This document shows positions 6,533-50,574 of a stretch of 51,075 nucleotides of DNA, in pieces. A program made the translations under genes and the position numbers. How positions within the stretch are numbered: the stretch's first letter is position 1; each line of letters starts with the position of its first letter. The notes below the pieces were generated by a model that saw only the letters and a program-made list of their open reading frames with translations, was not told the origin of the DNA and searched no databases. This stretch comes from Patescibacteria group bacterium (GTDB lineage: Bacteria; Patescibacteriota; Minisyncoccia; UBA6257; UBA9933): assembly GCA_038065035.1 (NCBI GenBank), contig JBBTRV010000002.1, positions 1 to 51,075 of the forward strand. The letters run 5' to 3'.

Positions 6533-7315
6533 TTAATTATTTAATAATGTTTTTAATTGCAACTTTTTATTCACATTAAACATCTTGATTAATGACAGCC
6601 GTTTCAAAATTTCTTTGGCAGAATCAATATCTTTATAGCCGCTATCGCGCAATTCAATCAGTTTATTTTCAAAAAACTCATTAATCTTCTCATTTTCAAC
6701 AACATCATCTATTTTGAAATTTTTGGTTTTTGGTTTTTGGTTTTGAATCATATCAATTGCCATTCCAGGCCTTCCAAATGAATTTTTAACAGCTTCGGCT
6801 ATTTTTTTCTTGTCTTCTTTTTTAACGCCCATATTCTCTAAATATTTTTTTATTTCAAATTCCGCTACTCTGGAAAAATAAATCTTTTGAAGACGCGAAG
6901 ATAAGGCGGGCAAAAGCGAATTTTCATCAGAGCTGATAAATATTATTAATGAAAACGGCGGATTGTCTTCAACTATTTTAAGCAGCGCGTTCTGGGCTTC
7001 GAAAGTCAAATTCTCAGCGTCACGAATGATAACAATTCTTTTTTTTGATAAAATCGGCGATTGAAAAAGAAAATCCCGCAATTTTCTGGCGCTTTCTATG
7101 CCGATCTTATTTTTTATATCAGGAGCGATAATCAAGGCTTCTTCCAATATCTTTCTCGGCTCTTCAAAAATTCCACATTCCAAATAATTCGCCATAGAAA
7201 CTGTGAATAAAAATTTTCCAACTTGAGATTCTCCAAAAAAAAGATAGGCGTGGAACAATTTATCCTTGTCTGCTAGTTTTTTAAATATTTCAATTTTATT
7301 TTGATGTCCAACCAT
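6533..7315 (-). CDS. holB: DNA polymerase III subunit delta'
   Basis: MVGH start, HAYLFFGESQVGK, AQNALLKIVED, LSSR; start trimmed to ATG 7315. Confidence 0.85.
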   Translation of the reverse strand: MVGHQNKIEIFKKLADKDKLFHAYLFFGESQVGKFLFTVSMANYLECGIFEEPRKILEEALIIAPDIKNKIGIESARKLRDFLFQSPILSKKRIVIIRDAENLTFEAQNALLKIVEDNPPFSLIIFISSDENSLLPALSSRLQKIYFSRVAEFEIKKYLENMGVKKEDKKKIAEAVKNSFGRPGMAIDMIQNQKPKTKNFKIDDVVENEKINEFFENKLIELRDSGYKDIDSAKEILKRLSLIKMFNVNKKLQLKTLLNN

Positions 7316-7327
7316 ATTTCCTTGAAT

Positions 7328-7447
7328 AAATTTAAAATGCAAATATCAAAATGTAAAATGACAATATAAAATATTAAAAATTTTAAAATTAAAACATTTT
7401 ATAATTTTAATTTGTCATTTTGATTTTTGATTTTTAAATTTTGATTT
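7328..7447. repeat. Inverted repeat with heptamer-periodic arms
   Basis: Left AAATTTAAAATGCAAATATCAAAATGTAAAATGACAA, right TTGTCATTTTGATTTTTGATTTTTAAATTTTGATTT; core AAAATGACAA/TTGTCATTTT. Confidence 0.8.
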
Positions 7448-8453
7448 ATCTCTTATTCAACAGCGTTCTCTTATAAACATCTAAATGGCTCAAGATTATT
7501 CCCGCTCCCTTTGCCACGCAAAAAAGCGGTTCTTCGGCAACATAAGTATTAACTCCTAGTATTCTCTTAAAAAATTCTGCAAGATTAAGTATTTGAGCGC
7601 TGCCGCCGGATAATATTATTCCTTTTTCCATAACATCAGCCACTAGCTCCGGCGGAGTTTCATTGAAAACCTGCTGGATTGAAGAAGCTATTTCTAATAG
7701 ATAGGGATTAATAGCTTCAGCAATTTCATTAGAGCTGATTAAAATATCTTTCGGCAAGCCGGAAATCAAATCTCTTCCCCTAACGGTATAAGTTATTTTA
7801 TTTTTTAGCGATAACGCCGAGCCGATTTCAATTTTAATATTTTCAGCCATCTGTTCACCGATAGCCATAGAATATTTCTTTTTTATATAATCAATAATCG
7901 CCGTATCGAATTTATCGCCGGCTATTCTCACGCTCGACCAAGAAACAATGCCGCCAAGAGAAATAACCGCCACTTCGCCGGTTCCGCCTCCGATATTTAC
8001 AATCATACTGCCAGAACGGGCATTAATTGGAATGCCAGCGCCCAAAGCGGCCAAAATCGGTTCTCGGACAATATAAGCTTCGCGCGCTCCGGCTTCTTTA
8101 GCGGCATTTATAATCGCCCGGCGTTCAGTCGGCGTAATGCCGGCAGGAGCGGAAATAACAACATCCGGCTTTAAAATATTGAAAGAACCAATGGCAGTAG
8201 CAATAAAATATTTAAGCATCGCCTTGGTAATGTAATAATCAGCAATCACTCCTTCGCGAAGCGGCCGATAAGGTTTGATATCGTCTGGCGTTCGACCAAT
8301 CATTTCTTTAGCTTCCTTACCAACAGCTAAAACAGTATTATCGGGCACGCTTAAAGCCACGATTGTCGGCTCATTGATAATAAAGCCCTTGCCGGGCATG
8401 AAAACAATCGTATTAGCCGTTCCTAAATCTATGCCGATTTTGCGAGTAAACAT
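7446..8453 (-). CDS. mreB: Rod shape-determining protein MreB
   Basis: GIDLGTANT, GVIADY, IGGGTGEVAVISLGG, SGG. Confidence 0.95.
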   Translation of the reverse strand: MFTRKIGIDLGTANTIVFMPGKGFIINEPTIVALSVPDNTVLAVGKEAKEMIGRTPDDIKPYRPLREGVIADYYITKAMLKYFIATAIGSFNILKPDVVISAPAGITPTERRAIINAAKEAGAREAYIVREPILAALGAGIPINARSGSMIVNIGGGTGEVAVISLGGIVSWSSVRIAGDKFDTAIIDYIKKKYSMAIGEQMAENIKIEIGSALSLKNKITYTVRGRDLISGLPKDILISSNEIAEAINPYLLEIASSIQQVFNETPPELVADVMEKGIILSGGSAQILNLAEFFKRILGVNTYVAEEPLFCVAKGAGIILSHLDVYKRTLLNKR

Positions 8454-8461
8454 AATTTATA

Positions 8462-8549
8462 AGCCACTAGCGACTAGGGTTTAGCCATTAGAGTAAAATT
8501 TATTTTAATCTTACACCCTAATGGCTAATAGCTATACCCTAAACCCTAA
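8462..8549. repeat. Inverted repeat with heptamer-periodic arms overlapping the murA stop
   Basis: TAGCGAC TAGGGTT TAGCCAT TAGAGTA ... ATGGCTA ATAGCTA TACCCTA AACCCTA; core TTAGCCATTAG/CTAATGGCTAA. Confidence 0.8.
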
Positions 8550-9834
8550 CAATCTCCGCTCCTAAATTTTTTAATCTCTCGTCTATTTTTTCATATCCTC
8601 TGTCAATTTCTTCAATTCCTTCTATTATTGATTCTCCCTTGGCAATCAAAGCGGCTGTTAAATGCGCCATGCCGGCGCGCAAATCAGAAACTTTTACATT
8701 TCTGCCGAAAAGCGGAGTTGGTCCGGAAATCACTGCGCTATGATACTGGCCTTCGCCGTTGAAACGACAGGGAAATTCTCCCAAACACTTTGAAAATACT
8801 TTAATATTTGCGCCCATAAAATTCAAGTCCTTAATATATTCAAAACGATTTTCATAAACAGTTTCATGAATTATGGAAATACTATTGGCTTGAGTAAGCA
8901 AAATAGCGAAAGGCTGCTGCCAATCGGTCATAAAACCCGGATGAGTGTCGGTCTCAAGTTCTATTGCCGAAAGACCGTCGGAACGCCAAAAAACAATGCC
9001 GTCGTTTTCCACCCTATATTCGCCACCAACCCGCCGGAACTCGTTTAAAAACGTTATTAAATGATTATGAATCGCTTCTTTGATTTTTATTTTATTTCCT
9101 TTGCTGGCCGCCGCAAGACACGCAAAAGAAGCCGCTTCGTTTCTGTCCGGCATTACTTTACGACGCACGCCACCCAGCTTTTTTACGCCGTCAATATAAA
9201 TAGTTCTATCCGCTCCCAAACCGATAATCGCTCCCATATTTTGAAGCATTTCTATCAAATCAATAATCTCCGGCTCAATAGCGGCGTTTTTAATTATTGT
9301 CCGGCCATTTGCTAAAACCGCCGCAAAAATTGCGTTTTCCGTGGCCCCCACGCTCGGATAGCGAAAATTGATTTTCGCGCCCTTTAATCCTTCTGGCGCT
9401 GTGGCTAAAAAATAATTTTCTAAAATTTCAATTTGCGCGCCAAGCGTTTTTAAAGCCGCTAAATGGATATCAACCGGCCGGCTGCCGATTTTATCGCCGC
9501 CTAAAAATGGAACTTGAGCTTTACCGAACCTTGCCAACAACGGCCCTAACGTTAGAATCGGAATTCTATTAACGCGGCCAAGAGATTCAACTTTGAAATT
9601 TTTTATTTCTGGAGTTTTTAAAACAGCCTCGTTGCTGTTGATATTGATTCCCGAACCGATAGAACGAAAAAATTCAGCGGTAATTTCCACGTCGCCGATT
9701 TGCGGAAAATTTTCAAAAATACATTCTTCGTCAGTAAGCAAAGATGCAACCATCATTTTGGTTGCCGCGTTTTTAGAACCTTGAAGCTTGATTTCGCCGT
9801 TTAAAGCCCTGCCGCCATTGACGATAAATTTCAT
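8539..9834 (-). CDS. murA: UDP-N-acetylglucosamine 1-carboxyvinyltransferase
   Basis: GSKNA, IGSRPVDIH, SVGATEN, PGFMTD, ETVYENRF, DLRAG, RGYE; start trimmed to MKFIVNGG at 9834. Confidence 0.95.
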   Translation of the reverse strand: MKFIVNGGRALNGEIKLQGSKNAATKMMVASLLTDEECIFENFPQIGDVEITAEFFRSIGSGININSNEAVLKTPEIKNFKVESLGRVNRIPILTLGPLLARFGKAQVPFLGGDKIGSRPVDIHLAALKTLGAQIEILENYFLATAPEGLKGAKINFRYPSVGATENAIFAAVLANGRTIIKNAAIEPEIIDLIEMLQNMGAIIGLGADRTIYIDGVKKLGGVRRKVMPDRNEAASFACLAAASKGNKIKIKEAIHNHLITFLNEFRRVGGEYRVENDGIVFWRSDGLSAIELETDTHPGFMTDWQQPFAILLTQANSISIIHETVYENRFEYIKDLNFMGANIKVFSKCLGEFPCRFNGEGQYHSAVISGPTPLFGRNVKVSDLRAGMAHLTAALIAKGESIIEGIEEIDRGYEKIDERLKNLGAEIVRV

Positions 9835-9838
9835 ATGA

Positions 9839-9939
9839 TTAGTATCAAGTATCAAGTGTTGGGTGTCAAGAAAATAACAATAATATCCAAATATACTCCT
9901 GATAATTCTTGACACTTAATACTCAACACTTAATACTTA
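9839..9939. repeat. Heptamer inverted repeat containing two divergent promoter-like motifs
   Basis: GTATCAA GTATCAA GTGTTGG GTGTCAA ... TTGACAC TTAATAC TCAACAC TTAATAC; each arm reads TTGACA-N17-RATACT outward. Confidence 0.8.
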
Positions 9940-9944
9940 TTAAA

Positions 9945-11252
9945 ATGACCAAAACAACCAGGCGTTTTTTATTTTACGGTCTTTTTATTCTTTTTATTCC
10001 ATTAAGCATAGCTATTATTCTTTATTCAACCGGTTGGAGGTTGAATGCCGAGAAATGTTCGGATATTCAATTATTAAATTGCTTGGGAATCAGAAAAACT
10101 GGCGCGATTTATATTGAAACAAAGCCAAAAGGCGTAAAAATCGAAATCAACGGAGAAATTTTTGAAGACCAGTCTGGCCTTATCCAAAGCGGCACTTTAA
10201 TATCAAACCTCCCGCCGAAAAACTATGAAGTAAAAATAGAAAAAGACGACTATCTTTTTTATTATAAAAATATTTCTGTCGCGCCTTCAATGGTTTCAGA
10301 ATTAATAGATACGATTCTAATTACCGAAAAAATAGAAAAACAAGAAATTATAAACAATAAATTAAGGGGTGATAAAATTATTGACTTAAGCAATGACACT
10401 AGAAAAATAATAATTAAAAATTCAAAAACTAATAATTATTATCTTTATAATTTTAGCGACCAAAAATCTGTTTTAAACATCAACGCGGCTTTCAATAATA
10501 TAAAAGCCAGCGAAATAGCAAAAATCTCTTTTCATCCGTTTGACTCAAACCGGCTTATTATTGAAGGCGAAAATGGGCTTTATATTTTCGACACAAACCG
10601 CCTTAAGCTGGAAATAATAACCGGCAAAACTATATTTTGGCTGACGAAAAATTCAAGCGTTTATTATTTGAAAGAAACAACAGATGAAAAATCGCCGAAA
10701 ACTAAAAATTACAGCTTGAATTCATTTAATTTGATATTAAGAACCGAAAGTGAAATTTTAAAACCGCAAACAAAAGCTAATAATTTTGCGAAATTCGATA
10801 TTTCAGACTCCGGAGACAGATTCGCGCTTATTGATTCCCTTGATAACCTGTATATTTTTAGCAATAATTCAAAAGAATTAAAACAAATCGCTCATAATGC
10901 CAAAGATTTTTTGTTTTCGCCTGATAATAAAAAAATTGCCTTTTTTGACCAAAATGGCCAGTTGAATATTCATTTCATTGAAGATTGGTATAAAAACTCA
11001 AGAAGAATTGCCGGCGACGCCAGCCGTTTTGGTTATGCGGAAAAATCATCGGAAATCTCCGATATTTATTGGCACAACTCATCCTACCACCTGATAATAG
11101 GGTATGAAAACAATATTGAATTCACTGAAATCGATGACCGTCCGCCGCTTAATAAATATAGAATCATTGAAGCAGACGATTTTTATTACAATCCCGAATT
11201 GTCAAAAATTTACTTTATCCAGAAAGAAAAACTTTATAGTTTTGAGATATAA
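9945..11252 (+). CDS. PEGA-domain membrane-anchored protein with probable beta-propeller
   Basis: N-terminal TM, TGAIYIETKPKG...YEVKIEKDDY PEGA-like segment, FSPDNKKIAF repeats; start trimmed to ATG 9945. Confidence 0.75.
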   Translation: MTKTTRRFLFYGLFILFIPLSIAIILYSTGWRLNAEKCSDIQLLNCLGIRKTGAIYIETKPKGVKIEINGEIFEDQSGLIQSGTLISNLPPKNYEVKIEKDDYLFYYKNISVAPSMVSELIDTILITEKIEKQEIINNKLRGDKIIDLSNDTRKIIIKNSKTNNYYLYNFSDQKSVLNINAAFNNIKASEIAKISFHPFDSNRLIIEGENGLYIFDTNRLKLEIITGKTIFWLTKNSSVYYLKETTDEKSPKTKNYSLNSFNLILRTESEILKPQTKANNFAKFDISDSGDRFALIDSLDNLYIFSNNSKELKQIAHNAKDFLFSPDNKKIAFFDQNGQLNIHFIEDWYKNSRRIAGDASRFGYAEKSSEISDIYWHNSSYHLIIGYENNIEFTEIDDRPPLNKYRIIEADDFYYNPELSKIYFIQKEKLYSFEI

Positions 11253-11255
11253 GTC

Positions 11256-11690
11256 CTACACCACTTCTGCTTTATAGCAATCCTCGCAATAAACTATTTC
11301 TGGCCTGTCTAGTGAATATGTCGTCTCAAATTTATTGGGGCAGAGTTTGACCAGCTCTCCCAATGTTTTGAATCTATTCGGATCTCCTAAGTCAACTCTG
11401 AACTGCGAATAAAAAGATTCCTGATAGCTGTTTTCCCAGGACGATGGCTTGGCGCTTCTGGAAAGGAAATCTGAATTTCCAACTCATTCAATGCTTTCGT
11501 AAATACTTTTGATCCATATTCCCGTCCGTTATCGGAATGGAAAATAGTAAGCCTTTGATTATTGGATAAGGCGAAAAATAAAGCCTGTAGCACCAACGAT
11601 ACAGAATAATTCATCATTACGCTGATGCCTGTTATTTTTCTAGTGAATATATCTATTAAAAGACTAATTTTATAATGAAACAAAATACAC
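11256..11690 (-). pseudogene. Decayed IS3-like (rve integrase core) transposase fused to a Cys-rich C-terminal fragment
   Basis: IDIFTRKITG, IFHSDNGREY, then after a 5-bp TTTCC duplication WENSYQESFYSQFRVDLGDPNRF; lacks N-terminal HTH and normal C-terminus; 5' limit approximate. Confidence 0.8.
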
Positions 11691-11795
11691 AATTTACATT
11701 TACTTCTGCCCAACCTCAGTTTGATAACATTTTCACTCTCTAACAAAAATTGCTTTATATTATTTTTTTCAATATATTTTCAAAATTGTTCAAAC

Positions 11796-12215
11796 TTACG
11801 CTTTTTTGGAAAATAATTTGAAGATAGCTAAAAAAGACAAGCCGCCTAAGAAGTCAAAAAATAAGTCTCCTATTGTGTCCGCCGCTCCCTGCTGGAAAAT
11901 TTGAGTGTAATTTTTTGAAGAAAAGAAAAAATCGTTAAGAAATTCGTAAAATTCCCAGAAAATACCGACTAAAGCAACAAGCGATAAAATGACAATTAGA
12001 AAAGTTAAAAAATTTTGGCTAAGGACTTCTTTAGAAATTGGAAATTGATAATTGAAAATTAAATATACAGCCGCCATTGCCACCCAAAAACCGCCTAAAA
12101 AATGCATCGGTATATCAAGCCATAAATAAGTCCAATACCAATAATTAAAAGTGGCTAAAATATGCAATGAAAGAACGGCTATTAGAAAAATAAGAACTGA
12201 TTTTGAAGAAACCAT
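11796..12215 (-). CDS. Integral membrane protein (VanZ/DUF2238-like)
   Basis: LDIPMHFLGG, WEFYEF, DTIGDL motifs, 4 TM; start trimmed to ATG 12215 (longer ORF overlaps rpsI). Confidence 0.75.
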   Translation of the reverse strand: MVSSKSVLIFLIAVLSLHILATFNYWYWTYLWLDIPMHFLGGFWVAMAAVYLIFNYQFPISKEVLSQNFLTFLIVILSLVALVGIFWEFYEFLNDFFFSSKNYTQIFQQGAADTIGDLFFDFLGGLSFLAIFKLFSKKA

Positions 12216-12231
12216 ACCTGATAGTATAAAA

Positions 12232-12687: not shown

Positions 12688-12693
12688 AAAAAA

Positions 12694-13038: not shown

Positions 13039-13043
13039 AATAT

Positions 13044-18887: not shown

Positions 18888-19772
18888 TTATTTCCCTTTT
18901 GCTGTCAATAAAAGCGGACTAGCAATAAAAATCGAAGAATACGTTCCGATTATCGTTCCTGCCATTATAACTAAGACGAAATATTTTAAAGATTCTGGGC
19001 CGAAAAGAAAAAGAGCCAATAAAACCAATACTAAAGTAAGGGAGGTGTTAATTGAACGCGCTATTGTCTGATTAACGCTGCTGTTTATCACTATTAATAA
19101 ATCCTTTCCGCGGCCAACAAGCAAATTTTCCCTAATTCTGTCAAAAACAACTATTGTATCATGGACTGAAAACCCTAAAATCACTAAAAGCGCCACAACA
19201 TATTTAGTGTCAAAATCAATTCCGTAACGCCAGCTTAAAAAAGATAAAATGCCTGCTGAAATCACAACATCATGAAACAATGTTACTAAGGTAATAATTC
19301 CATACTTGTAAGATTTCACCGGATAGGAAACTTTTCTAAAGGCGTAAGCGACATATAAAGAAATTCCAAGTAAAACAAGAATAACGGCTAAAACGGCTTT
19401 TGTTTTTAATTCGCCTCCGATTGCCGGACCGATTGTTTCATAGCTAATTTCTTCTGTTTCGCCGAATTTTTCTTTTAATTTGCCCAAATATTCTTGGTGT
19501 TGTTCTTCGGAAATATTGTTAAAACGGAATAAAAAATTGCCGTTTTCTGCTGGATAAATGGTTATATTTTCTATTTTTAATTCATTTTCAAAAAAACTTT
19601 TAATGCTGTCTGCTGTTAATTGTTGATCGTTGGTTAATCGAAGCTGCCAAAGCGTGCCGCCCGTAAAATCAATTCCCAGCCGAATTCCAAAAACAACCAA
19701 AGCAACAATACTGACAAAAATCAAAATTCCTGAAACTGAAAAATATATATTGCGATATTTAATGATATCCAT
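18888..19772 (-). CDS. secF: Protein translocase subunit SecF
   Basis: GIDFTGG, HDV, GFSVHDTIVVFDRIRE, GTYSSIFIA. Confidence 0.96.
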   Translation of the reverse strand: MDIIKYRNIYFSVSGILIFVSIVALVVFGIRLGIDFTGGTLWQLRLTNDQQLTADSIKSFFENELKIENITIYPAENGNFLFRFNNISEEQHQEYLGKLKEKFGETEEISYETIGPAIGGELKTKAVLAVILVLLGISLYVAYAFRKVSYPVKSYKYGIITLVTLFHDVVISAGILSFLSWRYGIDFDTKYVVALLVILGFSVHDTIVVFDRIRENLLVGRGKDLLIVINSSVNQTIARSINTSLTLVLVLLALFLFGPESLKYFVLVIMAGTIIGTYSSIFIASPLLLTAKGK

Positions 19773-27296: not shown

Positions 27297-28232
27297 ATGG
27301 ATACAATAAAAATCATATTTTTTTTAATAATTGCCATTGTTTTAACGATGTTTTTTCTCAGCAATGTTCCGAATATCATAAGCAGATTAGAAACAATGCC
27401 GCCAAAAAAAACAACGGAATCGTTTATCCAAAAGCCGATTTACACGCCGCCAGCCACAACACCGATACAAACTCCCCCACCAACGCCATCGCCTATTAAC
27501 TCTACCACAACTTATTATCTTCCATATGTTTCCGATTATGAAATTCCAAATGGATTAAAACGCGAACAGCTTTCGCCTTATTTCAGAAAAGTAAGGATTT
27601 CTTCTGCTTCCGCTTATTCAACCGTTAATTACCCTTCAAAAATATCCCTAAATTATTATTTAAACGGCGGTGAAGCTATAAATATCACAAGGTGGAAAAT
27701 AAGAAGCAACAAGGGAGAAATTGAAATCCCAAAAGCAGTTGATAACTATGACCTCTCAATTTTAGCTGTTCCAAAAGATATTATCCTTCAAAATTACGGA
27801 TATATAGATATTTACAGCAATAAAAGCGCGATTAATCAAAATATCCGGCTCAATAAATGCGCCGGCTACTTGGAAAACTTCTACGATTTTGTCCCTTCTC
27901 TTACCCAAAATTGTCCGTTAATTTACGAATCTCGCGCTGAAATCGCCGGATTAGCCGGCTATTGCCAGTCATATATTTATTCTCTCGGAAGCTGCAAGCT
28001 TCCCGATACCGCGATTTATAATTCTTTTCCGGGAACCGATGAAGGAAATGCCTGCCGCGCTTATTTAAATACTATCAGCTACGGCACTTGCCTGAAAAAA
28101 CACTCCAAAGACGACGATTTTTTCAAAAACGAGTGGTGGCTCTGGGTTGATAAAATAATTCTTGACCAGATCCACGACCGCTTACGATTATTCGACGAAA
28201 AAGAGCTTTTAGTCGACGAGTATATTTATTAG
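27297..28232 (+). CDS. Exported hypothetical protein, Pro/Thr linker, Cys-rich, lamin-tail-like fold possible
   Basis: N-terminal TM, PT-rich linker, INITRWKI, six Cys, DRLRLFDEKELLVDEY. Confidence 0.7.
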   Translation: MDTIKIIFFLIIAIVLTMFFLSNVPNIISRLETMPPKKTTESFIQKPIYTPPATTPIQTPPPTPSPINSTTTYYLPYVSDYEIPNGLKREQLSPYFRKVRISSASAYSTVNYPSKISLNYYLNGGEAINITRWKIRSNKGEIEIPKAVDNYDLSILAVPKDIILQNYGYIDIYSNKSAINQNIRLNKCAGYLENFYDFVPSLTQNCPLIYESRAEIAGLAGYCQSYIYSLGSCKLPDTAIYNSFPGTDEGNACRAYLNTISYGTCLKKHSKDDDFFKNEWWLWVDKIILDQIHDRLRLFDEKELLVDEYIY

Positions 28233-31090
28233 ATTACAAAATTAATCAGCTTGTCCGCTACGAAAATAACTTTTTTAATTTCCTTGCCAGTGATTAAAAT
28301 TTTAATCCTGTCCGAAAACAATGCCTCTTTTTCCGCTTCTTTTTGGGAGATTCCGCTATTGGCCAAAATTTTATCGCGAGTCTTTCCGTTTATCTGAATT
28401 ACTAATTCAAAAGTTTCTTCTTTAATAAGATTTTTATCATATCGCGGCCATTTTTCCAGATGCACCGATTTTTTTCCGCCAAGCTGATGCCATAATTCCT
28501 CGCTAAGATGAGGCGCGAAAGGCGCCAATAACTTTAAAAATCGTTTTATTGTTTTATCATCGCATTGTTGATGATTTTCTTCTATCTTGTTGAATAAAAT
28601 CATCAACGCGCTAATCGCCGTGTTAAAATGAAAATTTTCAATATCTTCAGAAATTTTTTTGATAGTTTGGTGTAAAAGTCTTTCTAATTCATCGTTTTTA
28701 ACGCTTGATACTTGATACTTGATGCTTGATATTAATTTATTTATTCTTTCCAGAAATCTTTTAACTCCGAGTATCCCGGTCGGATTCCACGGTCCGCCTT
28801 GGTCATAAGGCCCCATAAAGCAAAGATACATCCTAACGGCATCACTGCCGAATTTTTTAACTAAATTGTCAGGGTCAACAACATTGCCGCGCGATTTAGA
28901 CATTTTTTGGCCGTCAGAACCAAGAATTATACCTTGATGACGCAAAGCCGCAAACGGCTCGCCAAAATTCAAATAACCGAAATCTTGAAGCGCTTTGGTG
29001 AAAAATCGTACATATAAAAGATGCATTGCGGCATGCTCGGCTCCTCCGATATACATATCAACCGGCAGCCAATTTTTTATTTTTTTCCCGTCAGCAAACT
29101 TCTTTGAATTATTCGGATCAACATATCGCAAATAATACCAAGAAGAACAGACAAACGTGTCCATTGTGTCTGTTTCTCTTTTTGCTGGATTGCCGCATTT
29201 AGGACATTTTACATTTACAAATTTTTTTGAATGAGCTAATGGCGATTTCCCTTCTTCTGTTGGCAAATAATTTTTGATATTCGGCAATATTACCGGCAGT
29301 TTTTTCTCCGGTACCGGAACAATTCCGCATCCGCCAGCTGGCGGATCGCAATAAATAATCGGAATCGGCGCACCCCAATAACGCTGCCTTGAAACAAGCC
29401 AGTCACGAAGTTTATAATTAATTTTCTTTTCACCCAATTTATTATCTTTAAGCCACTTCATCATTTTTTCTCTCGCTTCCTCGGATTTCATTCCTGTAAA
29501 TTGACCAGAATTAACAAGGACTCCATCTTCCGCATATGTTTCTTCGCCATTTAATCTTTTAACCCAATCGTCCATTTCCGCATGGCACAACGTATCATAA
29601 TTAACATTTTCTTTATCGACCCAGATTAACTCATGCGAAATTTCCCATTCTTTATCAACTGGAGATTTTTCTTCATTTATAAGGTCGAATAAAACGCCCG
29701 TTGTATAGGCAACCCTATTTTCATCTTTATGCTTGGCAAAATATTCAGCGCGAACTTCCCCGCCCAAAATTTTAACTAATTTAATATTTTTATAGCCGGT
29801 TTCTTCTTCTGTCTCTCTTCTGGCCGCTTCCACTACGCTTTCATTTTCTTCAATTCCTCCCATAGGAAAAGTAACCCAATGAAATTTTTTTGATTTTAAA
29901 CATAGAAATTTATTATTTTTTGGATTCCTTACAAGTGCGTGAACATTTTTTCTTTCCACTGTTTTTTTGCCATAAGCAGGCGGATTTTTTTTATCAATTC
30001 TATTTGGTATTACAACCTCTTTAATGGGCAAATTATATTTTTTCGCAAATTCCCAATCCCTTTCATCGTGCGCCGGAACAGCCATCACCGCGCCAGTGCC
30101 ATAATGCCCCAAGACATAATCCGCAATAAAAACCGGCACTGTTTCATTATTAAAAGGATTTATCGCTTTAATCCCTTTTAATTCAACTCCTGTTTTCTTT
30201 TTATCCGCCTCCAATCTTTGAAGTTCAGTTTTTTTTCTTGCCTGCTCAATATAATTTTCAACTTCTTTAATATTCAATATCTCAGATTTTAAATTTGAAA
30301 TTATGTCATGTTCAGGAGCGATAACCAAATAAGTGCATCCGAAAACAGTATCCGCACGCGTTGTAAAAACTTCAATTGAAAATCGAAGATTTAAAACTGG
30401 AAATTTAATTATCGCCCCCTCCGACCGTCCTATCCAATTTTTCTGCATTATTTTTGTTTTTTCCGGCCAATCCAGCTTATCTAAGTCATTCAATAATCTT
30501 TCTGCGTAATCAGTAATTTTAAAAAGCCATTGTTCAATATCGCGCTGAACAACCTGCGCATCGCATCTTTCACATTTGCCATTTATCACCTGCTCATTAG
30601 CCAAAACAGTATGGCATTTTGGGCACCAATTTGCCGAAACCTTTTTCTTATACGCCAAACCATTCTTAAACATCTGCAAAAACATCCACTGGGTCCATTT
30701 ATAATATTCCGGCTCAGCGGTAATGATTTTGCGCGACCAGTCATACATATTTCCCATACTTTCAAGCTGAATCGTCATTGTCTTGATATTTTTATAAGTC
30801 CAATCCTTCGGATGAATTCCTCTTTTAATAGCCGCATTTTCAGCTGGCAAGCCAAAAGCGTCGAAACCAATTGGCGATAAGACATTAAAACCAGCCATTC
30901 TTTTGAAACGGCTGAAAACATCGGCCGGAGCAAAATTATACCAATGGCCGATATGAAGGTTTCCAGAAGGATACGGAAACATCACTAAATGATAAAAATT
31001 CTTTCTGCTGAGAACTTTATCTTTCGTCTTATAAATCTTTTTTTGTTTCCATATTTTCTGCCACCTTTTTTCAATCCTATTAAAATCCAT
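28229..31090 (-). CDS. leuS: Leucine--tRNA ligase with inserted NUDIX domain
   Basis: HIGH, KMSKS, GTGAVMAVPAHD, SRQRYWG; Nudix box GGIEENESVVEAARRETEEETG. Confidence 0.97.
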   Translation of the reverse strand: MDFNRIEKRWQKIWKQKKIYKTKDKVLSRKNFYHLVMFPYPSGNLHIGHWYNFAPADVFSRFKRMAGFNVLSPIGFDAFGLPAENAAIKRGIHPKDWTYKNIKTMTIQLESMGNMYDWSRKIITAEPEYYKWTQWMFLQMFKNGLAYKKKVSANWCPKCHTVLANEQVINGKCERCDAQVVQRDIEQWLFKITDYAERLLNDLDKLDWPEKTKIMQKNWIGRSEGAIIKFPVLNLRFSIEVFTTRADTVFGCTYLVIAPEHDIISNLKSEILNIKEVENYIEQARKKTELQRLEADKKKTGVELKGIKAINPFNNETVPVFIADYVLGHYGTGAVMAVPAHDERDWEFAKKYNLPIKEVVIPNRIDKKNPPAYGKKTVERKNVHALVRNPKNNKFLCLKSKKFHWVTFPMGGIEENESVVEAARRETEEETGYKNIKLVKILGGEVRAEYFAKHKDENRVAYTTGVLFDLINEEKSPVDKEWEISHELIWVDKENVNYDTLCHAEMDDWVKRLNGEETYAEDGVLVNSGQFTGMKSEEAREKMMKWLKDNKLGEKKINYKLRDWLVSRQRYWGAPIPIIYCDPPAGGCGIVPVPEKKLPVILPNIKNYLPTEEGKSPLAHSKKFVNVKCPKCGNPAKRETDTMDTFVCSSWYYLRYVDPNNSKKFADGKKIKNWLPVDMYIGGAEHAAMHLLYVRFFTKALQDFGYLNFGEPFAALRHQGIILGSDGQKMSKSRGNVVDPDNLVKKFGSDAVRMYLCFMGPYDQGGPWNPTGILGVKRFLERINKLISSIKYQVSSVKNDELERLLHQTIKKISEDIENFHFNTAISALMILFNKIEENHQQCDDKTIKRFLKLLAPFAPHLSEELWHQLGGKKSVHLEKWPRYDKNLIKEETFELVIQINGKTRDKILANSGISQKEAEKEALFSDRIKILITGKEIKKVIFVADKLINFVI

Positions 31091-36160: not shown

Positions 36161-36240
36161 ATTAGTTAATTGGTTGATTAGTTAATTGGTTGATTAGTTT
36201 TTTACTAATTGACTAACTAACCAATTCGCTAATTAACTAT
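36161..36240. repeat. Inverted repeat with 8-nt-periodic arms
   Basis: ATTAGTTA ATTGGTTG ATTAGTTA ATTGGTTG ATTAGTT ... ACTAATTG ACTAACTA ACCAATTC GCTAATTA ACTA; fills the whole pilB-pilC gap. Confidence 0.85.
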
Positions 36241-42385: not shown

Positions 42386-42395
42386 TGCATCGCGT

Positions 42396-43730: not shown

Positions 43731-43758
43731 TTTAAAAAATAAATCTTGCGCGATTTTT

Positions 43759-43834
43759 ATCCCGCTAGAAATAATATTCCTTCATCAATTTAAGGAATAT
43801 TTCCCTTAATAGAAACGAAAATTTCTAACGGGAT
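43759..43834. mobile_element. MITE-like element with 14-bp terminal inverted repeats
   Basis: ATCCCGCTAGAAAT / ATTTCTAACGGGAT (1 mismatch), inner hairpin AATATTCCTT/AAGGAATATT. Confidence 0.6.
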
Positions 43835-43877
43835 TTATAAAAACTCTCCTTTAGAAAATAAAATATCAACTCTATTA

Positions 43878-44279: not shown

Positions 44280-44336
44280 ATCTAGTATAAGAATTCTAAA
44301 TAAATTATTAAAAATATCATTTAGAATTCATTTTAT

Positions 44337-45014: not shown

Positions 45015-45037
45015 TCTTACTCATTATTTCTTATATG

Positions 45038-46294
45038 TTATGGCATAAAATATTTCAATACCTTTTTAAACGAAAGATTTTCTTTAATTAGCCAGCCGCT
45101 TTCCTTTGCGCATTGATCCATACCGCAATAAAGTAAACCCGTTACAGTGGCAAATTCCGGCTCATTAATATAATTTTCGAAATCACGGTGATAAATTTCC
45201 AATTCTTTTGTTTCCGGCAAACCGATATCCGAAGAAATTTTCAATTCTTTTTTCGCCAAATCAATAATGCCGGGAATTTTGGCGCCGCCGCCGCAAAGTA
45301 TCGCTCCAGCCGGCAATTGTCCATGTTTGCCAATGATTTTCAATTCTCTATTGATAAATTCAAATATTTCTTCTAATCTGCTTTCTATTATTTCCGCGAC
45401 AAAATATGCTGAAATGCTTGATTTAAAATTTTTATCAAGAGCGTTCGCTTCAAAGCCACTCTTTTCTAAAATTTCTTGAAGAGTTATTTTCCCTTTCGCT
45501 GGCACCTCGGAAGAAATCGCTCTTCCAAAAAAAATTTTAACTATCTCGGCCAAAGCAACAGAACATTTTAAACCAACAGCCAAATCATTGGTAATATTTG
45601 AAGACCCAATCGGGAAACTCATTGCATAAACAAGCTTTCCTTCTTCATATACGCTCATCGAAGTTGTACCAGCGCCAATATCAATCAGCACAACCCCTAA
45701 ATCTTTATTGCTTTTAGTCAAAATCGAACGGCTGGCGGCTAGTGGATTATACACTAAACCGCCCACGCCGCCGCCCAAAGATTCAATTGAATTCAAAATA
45801 TTCTTAACATTTAAAGAAAATACATCAATTACCAAACTGTTGACTTCCAATCTGGTTCCCGACATTCCTAACGGTTCTCTTACGTCATTAATTCCGTCAA
45901 TAATGTATTCTCTTGTAATATTATGGATTATCATCCTGTTGGGCAAAAGCTTTATGGCCTGAGATGCCTTAACGACTCTGTCAATATCATCTTGGGAAAT
46001 TTCATTATCCGCCCGCGAAACAGCGATTATACCGCGGGAATTCTGGCATTTTATATTAGCTCCGCCAACATTGACAAAAATATTTTTAATAGCTGCCTTA
46101 TCTTTAGCTTTAATTTTTTCGAAAATCTTTCCCATGGGGACTAAAATCTCGTTTACATCAACAATTTCCCCCTTGCGGACGCCACTAGAATACTCCTCTA
46201 AAACGTCTATTAAAAACGGTTTTCTATTTTTATCTATTTCTGCCAGAAAGGCTTTTATTTTATATGAACCAATATCTAAAGCAGTGATAAACAT
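45038..46294 (-). CDS. ftsA: Cell division protein FtsA
   Basis: LDIGSYKI, GVRKG, PLGMSGTRLE, DIGAGTT, ITNDLA. Confidence 0.95.
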   Translation of the reverse strand: MFITALDIGSYKIKAFLAEIDKNRKPFLIDVLEEYSSGVRKGEIVDVNEILVPMGKIFEKIKAKDKAAIKNIFVNVGGANIKCQNSRGIIAVSRADNEISQDDIDRVVKASQAIKLLPNRMIIHNITREYIIDGINDVREPLGMSGTRLEVNSLVIDVFSLNVKNILNSIESLGGGVGGLVYNPLAASRSILTKSNKDLGVVLIDIGAGTTSMSVYEEGKLVYAMSFPIGSSNITNDLAVGLKCSVALAEIVKIFFGRAISSEVPAKGKITLQEILEKSGFEANALDKNFKSSISAYFVAEIIESRLEEIFEFINRELKIIGKHGQLPAGAILCGGGAKIPGIIDLAKKELKISSDIGLPETKELEIYHRDFENYINEPEFATVTGLLYCGMDQCAKESGWLIKENLSFKKVLKYFMP

Positions 46295-46300
46295 AAATTG

Positions 46301-46789
46301 CTAAATTGCTGATTTAAAAATTGAATGATTAATTTTTAGTTTCCCGATTAGTATTTTTTCAATTTTTTCCATTTTAATTCTATCACTTTTCTTTTTATGG
46401 TCATAGCCAAAAAGATGTAATAAACCATGAACTAATAACTGATAACTAACAACTGATAATCCGCGACTGCTGTTTGTTGTTAATTGCAAGTCATTTGTCA
46501 AATTAATGTATATTTCTCCTATTGGTTTTATTTTCTTTGTTTTGCCGCGGCTAATTAACTCCGGATGAGGAAATTCTTCAGATTCATTAAAACTCAAAAC
46601 ATCTGCTGCTTTATTTTTATTCCTAAATTTCTTGTTTAAAAATTTCATTATTTTATCTCCAGCCAAATAAATTTCCAAATAAATATTATTTTTACCAAAA
46701 GCTTCCAATAATGCCTTCGCGGCTGAAAAAACCGGATTCTCTAATTTTTTGAATTCCCCTCCCAAGGAAAAAACGGTAATTTTATTCAT
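46301..46789 (-). CDS. ybeY: rRNA maturation RNase YbeY
   Basis: LNKKFR, DVLSF, GEIYI, HGLLHLFGYDH. Confidence 0.93.
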   Translation of the reverse strand: MNKITVFSLGGEFKKLENPVFSAAKALLEAFGKNNIYLEIYLAGDKIMKFLNKKFRNKNKAADVLSFNESEEFPHPELISRGKTKKIKPIGEIYINLTNDLQLTTNSSRGLSVVSYQLLVHGLLHLFGYDHKKKSDRIKMEKIEKILIGKLKINHSIFKSAI

Positions 46790-47243
46790 TTCCTAATTTC
46801 TTTTTAATTAATTCTACTATTAAGGCCGATTCCGCTCTTCCTTTTAATTTTTTGGCCGCCGCCGCCATTACCCGACTGAAATCTTTTTGGGAAAACGCTC
46901 CAGTTGCTTCAATCGCTTCCATCACTATTTTTTCAATTTCTTCAGAACCGGCTTGGACCGGTAAATAATTCTGGATAATTGAAATCTCTTTTAATTCTTT
47001 ATCGGTCAAATCCTTTCTTCCGGCATTAGAATATATCTGAACCGCTTCTTTTCTTTTTTTTATTTCCTTAAATAAAATTTCAACTATTTCTTCATCTGAT
47101 AATTTTGGATTTTCACCCTTTCCTCTTTTTTCTATTTCTTTGTTTTTAAATACGGCAATCATCATGCGTAAAACGCCTACACAAAAAACATCTCCTTCCT
47201 TAATGGCGTTTTTTACATCTTGATTTATTTTTTCTAATAGCAT
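46782..47243 (-). CDS. GatB/YqeY domain protein
   Basis: IKKRKEAVQIY, GRKDL, YLPVQ, LKGRAE. Confidence 0.9.
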   Translation of the reverse strand: MLLEKINQDVKNAIKEGDVFCVGVLRMMIAVFKNKEIEKRGKGENPKLSDEEIVEILFKEIKKRKEAVQIYSNAGRKDLTDKELKEISIIQNYLPVQAGSEEIEKIVMEAIEATGAFSQKDFSRVMAAAAKKLKGRAESALIVELIKKKLGNE

Positions 47244-47352
47244 AATTGATTAAAAATAAACGCCGAAACGCGTTATTGCCGCTATTCAAAAACCAAAAAC
47301 TGTCATCAACAAACTGCGCGAAAAAGCATTAGTCGTAAAAAACTACGTTTTA

Positions 47353-47556
47353 TCATTTTTTTTTCGCGCTGACAAATTCTTTTTTCTTCTTGGCGCGATA
47401 TATGGCCGAAACTCTTCTGGCACGACGGCTCACCTTCCTTTTTCGATAACGCCTTTTCTTAGCTTCCAGCAAAACGCCGCTTTGTTTCATTTTCGTGGAA
47501 AAACGGTGTAAAAACGCTCCGACCGATTCTCCTTCTTTTCTTTTTACTTCAATCAT
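47353..47556 (-). CDS. rpsU: 30S ribosomal protein S21
   Basis: IEVKRKEGES...LHRF...SGVLLEAKKRRY; rpsU-yqeY synteny. Confidence 0.85.
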   Translation of the reverse strand: MIEVKRKEGESVGAFLHRFSTKMKQSGVLLEAKKRRYRKRKVSRRARRVSAIYRAKKKKEFVSAKKK

Positions 47557-47570
47557 TTATTGCGTTTAAT

Positions 47571-47651
47571 CCTACTAATTTACAAATTTTTACTAATATT
47601 ACTAATAATTTATATCAGTATAATTAATAATTTATTAGTATATTGGTAAGG
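47571..47651. repeat. ~80-bp palindromic TACTAAT-unit element, copy 2
   Basis: Aligns with 15679..15757 with about 6 substitutions and 2 single-base indels. Confidence 0.9.
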
Positions 47652-47655
47652 CTTA

Positions 47656-48063
47656 TTAATGGATTATTTTTTTCTTTATTTCTTCTAATGTTTCTTTTGG
47701 CGGGTTATCGACCACAACGTGGATTGAACCGCCTTTATCGCCATGCCACCTCGGCATTACATGAATGTGAAGATGGTCAATGGCTTGTCCGCTCACTTTA
47801 CCATGATTAATTCCTATTGTAAATCCATCCGGCTTTAACGATTTGCTTAAAATCGCGACAACCTTTTTTACCGCCTTAAAAACATCTCCTATTTCTTTAT
47901 CCGTTAAATCTAAAATGTTTTCCGCATGGTTTTTCGGTAAAATCATCGTGTGGCCAGTGGTTTTCGGATGAACATCTAAAATAGCCATTGACATATTATC
48001 TTCATAAATTATCTCCGCTGATATTTCTTTTTTTATAATTTTACAGAATAAACAATTCTCCAT
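47656..48063 (-). CDS. HIT-family hydrolase
   Basis: CLFCKII, GHTMILPK, HLHIHVMPR. Confidence 0.93.
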   Translation of the reverse strand: MENCLFCKIIKKEISAEIIYEDNMSMAILDVHPKTTGHTMILPKNHAENILDLTDKEIGDVFKAVKKVVAILSKSLKPDGFTIGINHGKVSGQAIDHLHIHVMPRWHGDKGGSIHVVVDNPPKETLEEIKKKIIH

Positions 48064-48078
48064 AAATTACGTTGAAGT

Positions 48079-49389
48079 TTAATGAAATTTTTTTCTAACT
48101 TCTTCTACCACTCTTTTAACCGGAACCGCTTCCTGATTGCCAGTTTCCATATTCCTTATTATCACCGATTCTTCGAAAACTTCTTTCTGGCCGATAATCA
48201 AAGTCAATAAAACTTTCGCCTTGTCGGCGGCGCGCAATTGGGATTTTAAAGATTCCTTGCCAAGAGATTCAATCGCTTTAATTCCCGCTTTTCGCAATTC
48301 TTCAAAAATAACGAAATTTCTTTTTTTAGCTTCTTCGCCGATATGAATTAAAAATATTTTAGCTCCGCTTCTCGACAAAGGAGCGATTTCCTGCTGTTTC
48401 ATCAGTTCAACCACTCTGTCGATTCCGACTCCTCCGCCAACACTGTTCGTCTTTTGCCGATAAAGCATTTCCGCGAGATAATCATATCTACCGCCTCCGC
48501 CAACCGCTATATTAAAATTTTCCGTCTCGGAAAAAAACTCAAAAACGGTTCTATTATAATAATCCAGCCCTCTTACCAAAAAAGGATTAAGCGAATAAGG
48601 AATTGAGACAATATCAAGATATTCAATAGTGCCTTTAAAATGTTTTCTGCAAGAAACGCAAAGTTTGTCAATAATCAAAGGCGCTTCCGCTTTAACAGGC
48701 TGGCAAATTTCATTTTTGCAATCAAGCAGCCGGAGCGGCTTGAACGGCAGCCTTCTTAAACAATCCTTGCAAATCTTATCTTTTTTCGTTCTGTAATATT
48801 CCTGAAGCTTTTTTGCGTAAGCTACGCGGCATTGCCGGCAGCCGATACTATTAATATGAACGATAAGATTTTTGATTTTAAGTTCTTCTAAAAACCTAAA
48901 TGGCGCAAGAATCGCCAACGCGTCAAAATAAGGTTCTTCTTCTCCGCCTATTATCTCAAACCCAACTTGTTCATGCTGACGATAACGGCCGGCCTGCGGC
49001 TGTTCATGGCGAAAAAGCGGCCCTGAATAAAAAAGTCTTAATGGCTGTCCAAGCCTTGAAAGATTATGTTGAAAATAAGCGCGCATCACCGGAGCCGTCA
49101 TTTCCGGCCGCAACACTAGTTTATCGCCGCCTCTTGCTTTTACAAAATACATCTGTTTTTCAACAATATCGGTTGCTTCTCCGGTACGCTCAAAAACCTC
49201 CGCGGATTCAATTATTGGCGTATCAATCCTTAAAAAATCATAGGATTCGGCGATTTTTCCAGCTGCCCTGCGCGCTTTTTCCCAATAAAGCTGATCATCA
49301 GGCAAGATATCATGCATCCCCTTAAGGCTCTGAAGCGACACTTTCTCTTTTCCTCTTTTAACGCTTTTCTTTTTTATATGTTTAGGCAC
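48079..49389 (-). CDS. hisS: Histidine--tRNA ligase
   Basis: LRPEMTA, FRHEQPQAGRYRQ, LVRGLDYY, GGGRYD; GTG start. Confidence 0.97.
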   Translation of the reverse strand: MPKHIKKKSVKRGKEKVSLQSLKGMHDILPDDQLYWEKARRAAGKIAESYDFLRIDTPIIESAEVFERTGEATDIVEKQMYFVKARGGDKLVLRPEMTAPVMRAYFQHNLSRLGQPLRLFYSGPLFRHEQPQAGRYRQHEQVGFEIIGGEEEPYFDALAILAPFRFLEELKIKNLIVHINSIGCRQCRVAYAKKLQEYYRTKKDKICKDCLRRLPFKPLRLLDCKNEICQPVKAEAPLIIDKLCVSCRKHFKGTIEYLDIVSIPYSLNPFLVRGLDYYNRTVFEFFSETENFNIAVGGGGRYDYLAEMLYRQKTNSVGGGVGIDRVVELMKQQEIAPLSRSGAKIFLIHIGEEAKKRNFVIFEELRKAGIKAIESLGKESLKSQLRAADKAKVLLTLIIGQKEVFEESVIIRNMETGNQEAVPVKRVVEEVRKKFH

Positions 49390-49404
49390 GATAAATTCAA
49401 AAAT

Positions 49405-49956
49405 TTAATACTCCGGTTTTTCTACTGCCATTGCTTTTGCGAACGGCCAAAGTCTTAAACGAACGGCTCCGATAATCTCACCTTCTTTTACTGCCCCCCA
49501 GCTTCTTGAATCAAAACTAAAATCGCGATTATCTCCCAAAACAAAATATTCATTTTCGCCAACTTTTATTTTTTCCTTAGCGCTGGTTGTTTCTTCGTAA
49601 AAAGGAAGATAGTTTTCCGTCAAAATCATTCCTTTTGGAGAATCTTCGTTAAAAACCGTTATCTTTCCTCCTTTAAATTCCAGTTCCTCTCCCGGCAAGC
49701 CGATTATTCTTTTAATATAATAATATTTCTCGTCGTTTGGATAATGGAAAACTATAACTTCGCCGCGTTCGGGCTCGCGGAAACGGTAAGAAAGCTCGTC
49801 TATGAGCAAATAATCGCCGTTATGGAAATTCGGCTCCATTGAAGCGCCGCTCACCAAAAATGGCTGGACCAAAAAAGTGCGGATGATTAAAACGGAAACT
49901 ATGGCGATTAAAGCCACTTCGATTGTTTCCCAAATGACGTAAAAAAAGGATTTCAT
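49405..49956 (-). CDS. lepB: Signal peptidase I
   Basis: SGASMEP, YIKRIIGLPGE, GDNRDFSFDSR. Confidence 0.95.
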   Translation of the reverse strand: MKSFFYVIWETIEVALIAIVSVLIIRTFLVQPFLVSGASMEPNFHNGDYLLIDELSYRFREPERGEVIVFHYPNDEKYYYIKRIIGLPGEELEFKGGKITVFNEDSPKGMILTENYLPFYEETTSAKEKIKVGENEYFVLGDNRDFSFDSRSWGAVKEGEIIGAVRLRLWPFAKAMAVEKPEY

Positions 49957-49986
49957 TTGATTGTTTTTGTATTATAATAGGATTAT

Positions 49987-50574
49987 ATGAAATTGCAAGA
50001 TATAAGATTAATCGTCGGATTAGGCAATCCGGGAAAAGAATATGAAAAAACCTACCATAACGCGGGATTTTTGTTTATAGAATATATAATTAATAAAAAT
50101 CCCGCTAAAATCAAAAATCAAAAATCAAAAATCAAAAATTTTGAATTTATTAAAACTGACGGATTAATATTCATAAAATCACTTACTTTTATGAACGAAT
50201 CAGGAATAGCCGTAAAAGAAGTAATGAAATATTTTAAGGTAAACCTGGAGGAAATTTTAATTGTTCACGACGATTCCGATATTGAACTTGGCAATTACAA
50301 ACTTTCTTTTGGCCGGGGAAGCGCCGGGCACAATGGCGTGGAATCAATAATAAGAGCGCTGAAAACAAAAAATTTCTGGCGGTTGCGCATCGGCATTGGA
50401 AAAGTATCAAGTATCAAGTTTCAAGTATCAAAGGAAAAAGCAGGCTTGCCCGCCGAAGCTTACCGAGCAAAGGCGGGCGATTTTGTATTAAAAAAAATTA
50501 GTAAAAAAGATCTGGAAATACTAAATCAAATTTTTACAAAATCTGCCCAAAAACTTCCTATAAAAAATTCCTGA
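49987..50574 (+). CDS. pth: Peptidyl-tRNA hydrolase
   Basis: VGLGNPG, HNAGF, FMNESG, VHDD, GHNGV, RLRIGIG. Confidence 0.96.
   Translation: MKLQDIRLIVGLGNPGKEYEKTYHNAGFLFIEYIINKNPAKIKNQKSKIKNFEFIKTDGLIFIKSLTFMNESGIAVKEVMKYFKVNLEEILIVHDDSDIELGNYKLSFGRGSAGHNGVESIIRALKTKNFWRLRIGIGKVSSIKFQVSKEKAGLPAEAYRAKAGDFVLKKISKKDLEILNQIFTKSAQKLPIKNS

Follow-up and report, generated by a model that had tools for sequence, protein, structure and literature searches.

Heptamer repeats and the patescibacterial arrays

Since about 1990, heptamer repeats have been recognized as a peculiarity of bacterial genomes for which, to our knowledge, no mechanism has been established. The present analysis concerns short tandem arrays of heptanucleotide units in a 51,075-nucleotide stretch of DNA from a Patescibacteria group bacterium (GenBank assembly GCA_038065035.1, contig JBBTRV010000002.1, positions 1 to 51,075), referred to here as the window, and in the rest of the same genome. 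A first-pass annotation of the window, made from the sequence alone, had noticed runs of such units inside conserved genes and interpreted them as in-frame insertions produced by a genome-wide process that deposits or leaves repeats, reminiscent of the short tandemly repeated repetitive (STRR) heptamers of cyanobacteria. This account is partly supported by the results described here, being right in outline and too simple with regard to insertion. The arrays are a coding-region variant of the known, unexplained class that includes STRR and heptamer simple sequence repeats (SSRs).

According to the excerpt of PMC4692102 used here, no detailed literature on heptamer repeats existed by 2015, and prokaryotic long SSRs with heptanucleotide units are over-represented relative to other unit lengths, are mainly intergenic and have no known cause (Mrazek et al. 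2007 in PMC4692102). The patescibacterial arrays share with these SSRs the tandem, head-to-tail arrangement of at least three 7-nt units and the excess of period 7, but 28 of the 36 arrays that could be assigned a location lie in open reading frames (ORFs), at recurrent positions of housekeeping enzymes. The STRR of heterocystous cyanobacteria (Calothrix PCC 7601; same excerpt of PMC4692102) likewise comprise several heptamer units in short tandem arrays scattered over the genome. The host in the present case, however, belongs to the Candidate Phyla Radiation (CPR)/Patescibacteria, the units are A-rich and stop-free, and the location is coding. The resemblance to STRR proposed in the first-pass annotation holds at the level of the class. 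Arrays of GGGAATC or GGGGAYT in Xanthomonas and Nostoc are G-rich, are thought to form G-quadruplexes (G4) and are found less often than expected within coding regions (PMC4692102, in excerpt). The present arrays resemble them in the preference for about four units and in the occurrence of some inverted pairs; their A-rich units, however, cannot form G4, so the four-unit preference needs another reason here. The direct repeats of TAACTGA in Beggiatoaceae, Cyanobacteria and Bacteroidetes, mostly located just upstream of start codons and proposed to be regulator binding sites, are also heptamer direct repeats found at many loci per genome, with 2-6 copies per set (PMC4679880, in excerpt). Unlike these repeats of one fixed unit, the arrays described here have many different units and are found inside genes.

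A further comparison is offered by the Rickettsia palindromic elements, roughly 100-150-bp palindromic copies of one family, which likewise represent repetitive DNA tolerated in frame at permissive surface positions of conserved genes; the present arrays, by contrast, are tandem repeats of 21-41 nt without a common sequence. Among the matches listed in the literature search, which did not extend to supplements, there is no paper joining 'heptamer' with CPR names. In minimal genomes, repeats cannot hide between genes, so that their behavior can be read against conserved protein scaffolds: the places of origin and the lengths of the arrays become visible, as do the addition or replacement of residues and the changes of the units from lineage to lineage. 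An old descriptive puzzle is thereby converted into testable comparisons, and the arrays show a route by which non-adaptive repeat DNA can reshape the loops of essential enzymes.

Genome-wide excess of period 7

The genome consists of 589,600 bases in 12 contigs (about 36% G+C, 92% complete; the window is contig 2), about 93% of which falls within ORFs according to a crude call, and is present in groundwater metagenomes (8 run rows from 2 studies). An array was classified as strict if, after removal of low-complexity runs, 19 or more of 21 positions matched at a given lag. The genome contains 22 strict arrays at lag 7, compared with one at lag 6, three each at lags 8 and 9, and 6 at lag 14, a harmonic of 7. 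The expected number of lag-7 arrays is 0.05 on average in 20 order-3 Markov simulations; permuting the codons within each gene (15 runs) gives 0.0, and shuffling synonymous codons (15 runs) gives 1.6, with a maximum of 4. Periods 8 and 9 show no excess over the synonymous shuffle. Exact arrays of at least three copies are distributed similarly, with 11 at period 7, 2 at period 6 and none at period 8. The excess persists at lower stringency (63 loci versus 13.2 expected at 17/21 or better, 99 versus 28.9 at 16/21, 152 versus 52.8 at 15/21, and 258 versus 120 at 14/21), which indicates that the genome also contains several dozen decayed arrays.

The first-pass annotation had held that the repeat exists at the DNA level rather than being selected as a peptide, and had named codon-shuffled controls as the yardstick for a lag-7 excess. 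Both expectations are borne out: the synonymous shuffle keeps every protein yet lowers the number of arrays from 22 to 1.6, and hence the periodicity belongs to the DNA itself rather than arising secondarily from the peptide. The same result bears on the alternative that selection acts on the peptide, e.g., for two beta-strands seven residues apart, with the DNA repeat as a side effect. The array peptide of the LeuS hairpin (of the KFEIRNSKFEIP type) does fit an alternating two-strand pattern that is also seen in non-repeat homologues, but a peptide repeat would give a period of 21 nt rather than 7, arrays are also found in spacers, and the shuffle already contradicts this explanation, which is accordingly considered very improbable.

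The period-7 arrays are a real, DNA-level and lineage-wide repeat phenomenon. In 80 metagenome loci of LigA (960 kb), there are 56 arrays at period 7, compared with 7, 1 and 2 at periods 8, 9 and 12, and 20 at the harmonic 14. The 26 CPR-titled LeuS loci (198 kb) contain 26 period-7 arrays, the other periods between 5 and 11 yielding no array at all, whereas the 26 Bacillota-titled LeuS loci (192 kb) contain a single period-7 array. In 29 Pth loci of relatives (96 kb), 13 period-7 matches were found. The periodicity, which the first-pass annotation had attributed to a genome-wide process, extends to the lineage. In what follows, G000 denotes the genome under study, and other G and L numbers denote genomes and loci of relatives. 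The density of strict arrays per 100 kb is 3.7 in this genome, 14.5 in G003 (138 kb sampled) and 16.2 in G006 (80 kb sampled); G003 also has 5 period-8 arrays. The whole genome of G016, a member of the same family, has only 4 strict arrays at period 7 versus 4 at period 8, so the period-7 excess is not uniform within the family. The 40 relatives include no genome of the same genus, the best metagenome match of LigA is just 69% identical, and the collections searched contain no relative of Pth between 65% and 100% identity.

Unit composition, reading frame and copy number

With looser criteria, 37 arrays built of 24 canonical units are detected in the genome. The location was tallied for 36 of these, the holB array being excluded by the filter; apart from the 28 arrays in ORFs, 6 lie in spacers and 2 at ORF edges, a distribution that follows from the compaction of the genome. 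Read on the coding strand, the units are rich in A: 29 of them comprise 107 A, 45 T, 35 C and 16 G. The consensus unit is stop-free in all three frames in 19 of the 29 coding arrays, the other ten being short or imperfect, and the reverse complement of the unit contains a stop in 26 of the 29, compared with 37% of background heptamers, which explains the uniform orientation of the arrays. Given that 7 and 3 have no common factor, three units (21 nt) are read in all frames and yield the same seven-residue cycle from any entry frame (e.g., AAGTATC gives KYQVSSI). The possibility that the units require a sequence motif was considered and rejected, there being only approximately twofold enrichments of certain trinucleotides and no consensus.

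The number of whole copies per array is narrowly distributed: when this genome, that of G016 and the loci of pth, LigA and LeuS are taken together, 96 arrays have 4 copies, 26 have 5 and one has 8, and none has 6 or 7. The strict arrays in the 80 LigA loci span 28-41 nt. Heptanucleotide repeats act as contingency loci in Haemophilus (PMC8262952, in excerpt), and the arrays could, by analogy, switch genes on and off by gain or loss of units. However, the host genes are essential, single-copy housekeeping genes in which one unit more or less shifts the frame, and the Pth sequence is identical on 3 contigs, so that this role appears exceedingly improbable here.

Recurrent positions in orthologous proteins

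The arrays occur repeatedly at the same positions of orthologous proteins. In the LigA alignment (82 rows), they fall into about five clusters of alignment columns. The linker preceding the BRCT domain (columns 813-819) carries arrays in 20 of the 82 rows, with at least 8 different units, from AAGTATC where the genome is AT-rich to quasi-repeats that are rich in GC. Among 78 LeuS genes, 19 contain a total of 31 arrays, with clusters at residues 228-233 (10 arrays), 263-270 (8 arrays), 786-789 (5 arrays) and 840-844 (3 arrays) in the numbering of the G000 protein. The Pth loop that follows the RIGIG motif carries heptamer-type peptides encoded by different units in many genera.

Insertion and replacement of residues

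Comparison of segment lengths shows two types of relationship. On the one hand, several arrays are 7 to 10 residues longer than their counterparts in G016, including pth site 2 and the LigA site-1 loop. The lengths of the latter (from ENYLG to YCELKIDG) peak at 7 residues (19 of 76) and at 14 (10 of 76), and there are smaller groups of 21, 28 and 35 residues. On the other hand, the LeuS segment preceding VFTTR (residues 226-246) is most often 21 residues long when all LeuS, those of Clostridia included, are considered, and five of the nine array-bearing orthologues are exactly 21 residues long in this hairpin (e.g., KFEIRNSKFEIP). Similarly, the LigA linker slice is 28 residues long in 48 of the 82 rows and 29 in 21, whether an array is present or not; the linkers of L078 and G016, whose LigA proteins are 81% identical, have unrelated sequences and differ in length by one residue. 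The equal lengths of segments with and without arrays indicate that arrays can replace existing residues. Thus, the term "inserted", as used in the first-pass annotation, is appropriate for holB, pth and LigA site 1, where extra residues are present, and does not fit the LeuS hairpin and the LigA linker, where non-repeat homologues carry segments of the same length, the very observation that the annotation had named as incompatible with its reading. A clean length quantum of seven residues was also considered: it holds at LigA site 1 and fails at Pth site 2, where the loop lengths of 120 homologues peak at 15, 19 and 26, and the idea was rejected.

The arrays of Pth were mapped on a predicted structure, in line with a suggestion made in the first-pass annotation. 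The AlphaFold2 model, built from a 27-sequence alignment, has a mean predicted local distance difference test score (pLDDT) of 89.2, with the lowest values, 61-62, at residues 141-160, i.e., array 2 and the adjacent hairpin-encoded peptide, and a dip to 84 at residues 41-50, which correspond to array 1. When CPR proteins are aligned or their structures predicted, array segments will show up as lineage-specific "insertions".

Origin of the arrays

These observations are best compatible with the view that the arrays probably are heptanucleotide SSRs that arise, and are kept uniform, in place by copying in a 7-nt register, and that are filtered by selection; why the unit is 7 nt long stays outside this explanation. 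Strand slippage or transient template misalignment between adjacent units would copy sequence in the 7-nt register, and the same process would homogenize the units in place, sometimes without a change of length (templated homogenization). Selection would then retain those arrays that preserve the frame and are stop-free in all unit frames on the coding strand, and that are located where change is tolerated, e.g., in surface loops, in linkers and in a beta-hairpin. The same tolerant positions would be struck repeatedly, with the segment either growing by about 7-10 residues or having its existing residues overwritten. The prevalence of 4-5 copies could result from the addition of three units, the minimum gain that keeps the frame, to a seed of one or two. 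Both the mechanism, i.e., slippage or templating, and the selective filter are what we infer. Such local copying agrees with the strictness of the 7-nt register, with the variety of units, which change from lineage to lineage at fixed positions, and with the length-neutral homogenization. No match to MutS_V was found in the 92% complete genome, and this was counted toward the slippage reading. Because the units differ by site and lineage, the pattern fits a local origin better than the repeat-depositing agent envisaged in the first-pass annotation.

Several points weigh against this explanation. Slippage by one unit would cause lethal frameshifts in essential genes, so a three-unit step or length-neutral homogenization must be assumed. 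The signature expected of growth from a two-copy seed, namely variant units in contiguous "aabb" blocks, is not enriched (9 of 22 columns versus 6.5 expected), although the pattern is present in 6 of 8 columns in this genome alone; a first, differently biased count of blocks gave 16 xxyy, 12 xyxy and 11 xyyx. The intergenic arrays of Xanthomonas also prefer about four units (PMC4692102, in excerpt), so that the frame cannot be the sole cause of the 4-5 copies. The density of arrays varies from 0 to 16 per 100 kb among the relatives, i.e., more than twentyfold, and the exact Pth sequence is present on 3 contigs with no variant. Finally, a purely local origin predicts neither the recurrence of the AAGTATC type (with the AAGCATC variant) at 5 unrelated loci and of AAAAATC at 3, nor the approximately twofold enrichment of TCA/TGA, CAA/TTG, ACT/AGT and CTA/TAG in the units.

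The recurrence of identical units at unrelated loci would be expected if the arrays were insertions of small mobile or selfish DNA, akin to the Rickettsia palindromic elements, that are copied between loci and survive only in frame. The GC-rich palindromes found in or beside arrays, in pth of the window and in LigA of L092, L074, L110 and L113, where they lie inside the arrays, are also compatible with such an origin. The arrays themselves, however, are not palindromic and do not form a dispersed family with a single sequence: the 24 different units among 37 arrays of one genome have no shared flanks or terminal repeats, and only the GC-rich hairpin of pth has look-alikes. Moreover, orthologous positions carry lineage-specific units, two sites show no change of length, and GC-rich hairpins are found within 40 nt of an array in only 3 cases versus 1.4 expected in this genome, a difference that is not significant. 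The mobile-DNA explanation is, therefore, largely contradicted and appears quite improbable. The small GC-rich hairpins are a separate feature that shares the tolerant spots of the arrays.

Possible relationship to PF05635 genes

A different possibility is that a dedicated system linked to genes of the PF05635 family generates or maintains the arrays, the solo genic arrays being its products, targets or relics. Proteins of this family ("23S rRNA intervening-sequence protein") have been described as similar to Avd of diversity-generating retroelements (PMC10053308, in excerpt). The genome encodes a single PF05635 protein of 122 aa on contig 9 (12855-13166, minus strand, equivalent to L233 1465-1833; 640-nt spacer), with a Pfam match to bAvd at 1e-7, below the cut-off. 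The gene is flanked by 51-nt inverted arms that are 73% complementary and consist of degenerate heptamers, and one of the flanks contains a direct repeat with a spacing of about 63-69 nt. A PF05635 ORF within inverted flanks capable of forming a stem corresponds to the 23S rRNA intervening-sequence type, an assignment that concerns this locus and not the arrays of the window. Given that no match to RVT_1 (reverse transcriptase) was detected in the 92% complete genome, the system of this gene is not a diversity-generating retroelement.

PF05635 genes are present in 28 of 41 genomes (G000 and 40 relatives), in up to 8 copies. At the loci of relatives, an array with at least 17/21 matches lies within 220 nt of the gene in 10 of 28 cases, and inverted flanks with at least 19/24 matches, many of them visibly 7- or 8-periodic, are found in 14 of 28. 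Most spacer arrays of the genome under study form the arms of small hairpins whose units are related. In 16 genomes of the family and order, the copy number of PF05635 genes (0-8) correlates with the density of strict arrays (Spearman rho 0.62, p about 0.01), a value uncorrected for shared ancestry and obtained with some contigs that were chosen for having such genes; it is unchanged after masking of arrays within 1 kb of PF05635 genes. Against this stand genomes with arrays and no match to the gene (4 arrays in G015, 3 in G013 and 4 in G016), as well as G020, which has 5 copies of the gene and a single array in 160 kb. In a set of 101 contigs from metagenomes and genomes, only 4 of which carry the gene, the contigs with the gene show no excess of strict arrays (4.97 versus 6.91 per 100 kb), and by the loose array measure the values are 24.8 with and 11.2 without the gene (p = 0.02). 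Furthermore, the presence of one gene copy and 24 units argues against sequence-specific binding. Taken together, these data make a dedicated PF05635-linked system unlikely, and there is only a small chance that a reverse-transcriptase-free system of this kind writes the arrays, or keeps them uniform, and overwrites tolerant loops of essential proteins across the CPR, and possibly also in cyanobacteria and other heptamer-bearing phyla. If true, both the strictness of the 7-nt register and the limit of 4-5 units would have an explanation.

Individual arrays of the window

The peptides and coordinates given in the first-pass annotation for the window are correct, and Pfam supports the names of the host genes: DNA_pol3_delta2 for holB, SecD_SecF_C for secF, the LeuS domains, and Pept_tRNA_hydro for pth. 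The score of each site is the best match count at the respective lag out of 21; copy numbers and match percentages were obtained with Tandem Repeats Finder (TRF). Among the nine in-gene sites originally reported, those of holB, leuS 28704 and pth (two sites) are strong and that of the membrane protein is moderate, whereas the secF site is weak and the remaining three leuS sites do not rise above the chance level.

The array of holB (DNA pol III delta'; 6719..6745, minus strand) consists of about 3.6-3.9 copies of the coding unit ACCAAAA and encodes the peptide IQNQKPKTKN (TRF 100%; 18/21; strong). In the HolB comparison, drawn from four relatives' genomes, this region is variable and is about 9 residues longer than in the G026 orthologue. 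The spacer between holB and the next gene contains 4.3 copies of TTTTGAT (7418..7447; TRF 82%; 17/21; moderate). Exact AGTATCA repeats (2.4 copies, detected by TRF; 15/21) at 9841..9857, in the divergent start region of ORFs 8539-9915 (minus strand) and 9909-11252 (plus strand), are short and weak on their own. The recurrence of units outside genes, which the first-pass annotation had noted, is thus apparent from a moderate case, TTTTGAT at 7418-7447, and a weak one, AAGTATC at 9841. In the gene of a membrane protein without a match to any Pfam family, 3.7 copies of GAAATTG, as read on the plus strand (12034..12061, gene on the minus strand), encode the peptide LIFNYQFPIS (TRF 84%; 17/21; moderate); the single orthologue that spans the site has a different length there. 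The variable loop of SecF past the GG motif (19605..19639, minus strand) shows weak periodicity only (15/21), and its length differs by -4 to +4 in 5 rows from 4 relatives, one of which is represented twice.

The leuS gene (28229-31090, minus strand) includes one strong array at 28703..28730, with four copies of the coding unit TATCAAG and the peptide ISSIKYQVSS (19/21). This array is located in a variable loop ahead of the anticodon-binding domain; the loop is 26 residues long, within the normal range of 19-38, and the orthologues L175, L179, L157 and L170 have arrays in the equivalent loop. The other three leuS sites, all on the minus strand, have chance-level scores in this genome: the "8-mer run" at 28540..28571 (residues 840-851) reaches 13/21 at lag 8 and is not significantly periodic here; 30270..30302 (residues 263-274, IISNLKSEILNI) reaches 14/21; and 30374..30408 (residues 228-239, IKFPVLNLRFSI), in the beta-hairpin before VFTTR, reaches 13/21. 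Orthologues, however, hold arrays at matching positions, namely L183, L156 and L157 at residues 840-844, 8 orthologues at 263-270 (e.g., IISNLKSQISNLKF in L179) and 10 orthologues at 228-233. All four LeuS sites noted in the first-pass annotation coincide with clusters of arrays in orthologues, so that the weak sites, including the "8-mer" site, gain comparative support: with sequences that are not significant by themselves, they may be decayed arrays or array-prone spots.

The LeuS protein also contains a NUDIX domain (residues 380-496, Pfam E = 1.9e-14) inserted in or beside the editing domain; in the closest orthologue, L153 (73% identity), the gene is of similar length. At the hairpin that hosts arrays (residues 226-246 of the G000 protein), L168, L172, L182 and L171 have inserted domains of 130-225 residues, two of which contain a GHSLGA-type motif suggestive of a hydrolase fold.

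One array was missed by the first-pass annotation: 4.3 copies of AACTAAT, or 2.1 copies of a 14-mer, at 46430..46459 (minus strand) inside ORF 46301-46789 (TRF match of 78% for period 7 and of 93% for period 14). The pth gene contains two strong arrays on the plus strand. Array 1 (50105..50140) consists of 4.7-5 exact copies of AAAATCA and encodes AKIKNQKSKIKN (21/21); this segment is about 7 residues longer than in several orthologues. A possible 11-bp stem formed by GCGGGATTTTT and AAAAATCCCGC in pth (50062-50105) ends exactly at the start of array 1, with the right arm including the array unit, and may be due to chance. Array 2 (50402..50431), located after RIGIG, consists of 4.3 copies of AAGTATC and encodes KVSSIKFQVSK (19/21).

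Hairpins and other repeats

Beside array 2, pth contains, in frame, a GC-rich hairpin GCCCGCC..GGCGGGC (50448..50478, plus strand; AGLPAEAYRAKAG) with a 7-bp stem, a 17-nt loop and a predicted energy of -23.2 kcal/mol. Related hairpins (TTGCCCGCCGAAGC..GGCGGG) are found in a spacer of contig 9 of the same genome, at about 3720, and in the relatives L312, L325 and L269, and distant homologues have the peptide encoded by the pth hairpin (AGLPAEA.RAK) in the same loop of Pth. Spacer arrays arranged in inverted pairs form short hairpins with related units (GTCATAA/TTATGAC) on contigs 1 and 4 of the genome (20174-20225, 27266-27320 and 103609-103670); these hairpins may be terminators or processing sites. 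Tandem repeats with other unit lengths are also present in the window. The AT-rich spacer upstream of holB (7328-7410) contains overlapping tandem repeats of 21, 16 and 8 nt, and another spacer between two genes (36161-36199) contains 2.4 copies of an exact 16-nt tandem repeat, ATTAGTTAATTGGTTG (TRF score 78).

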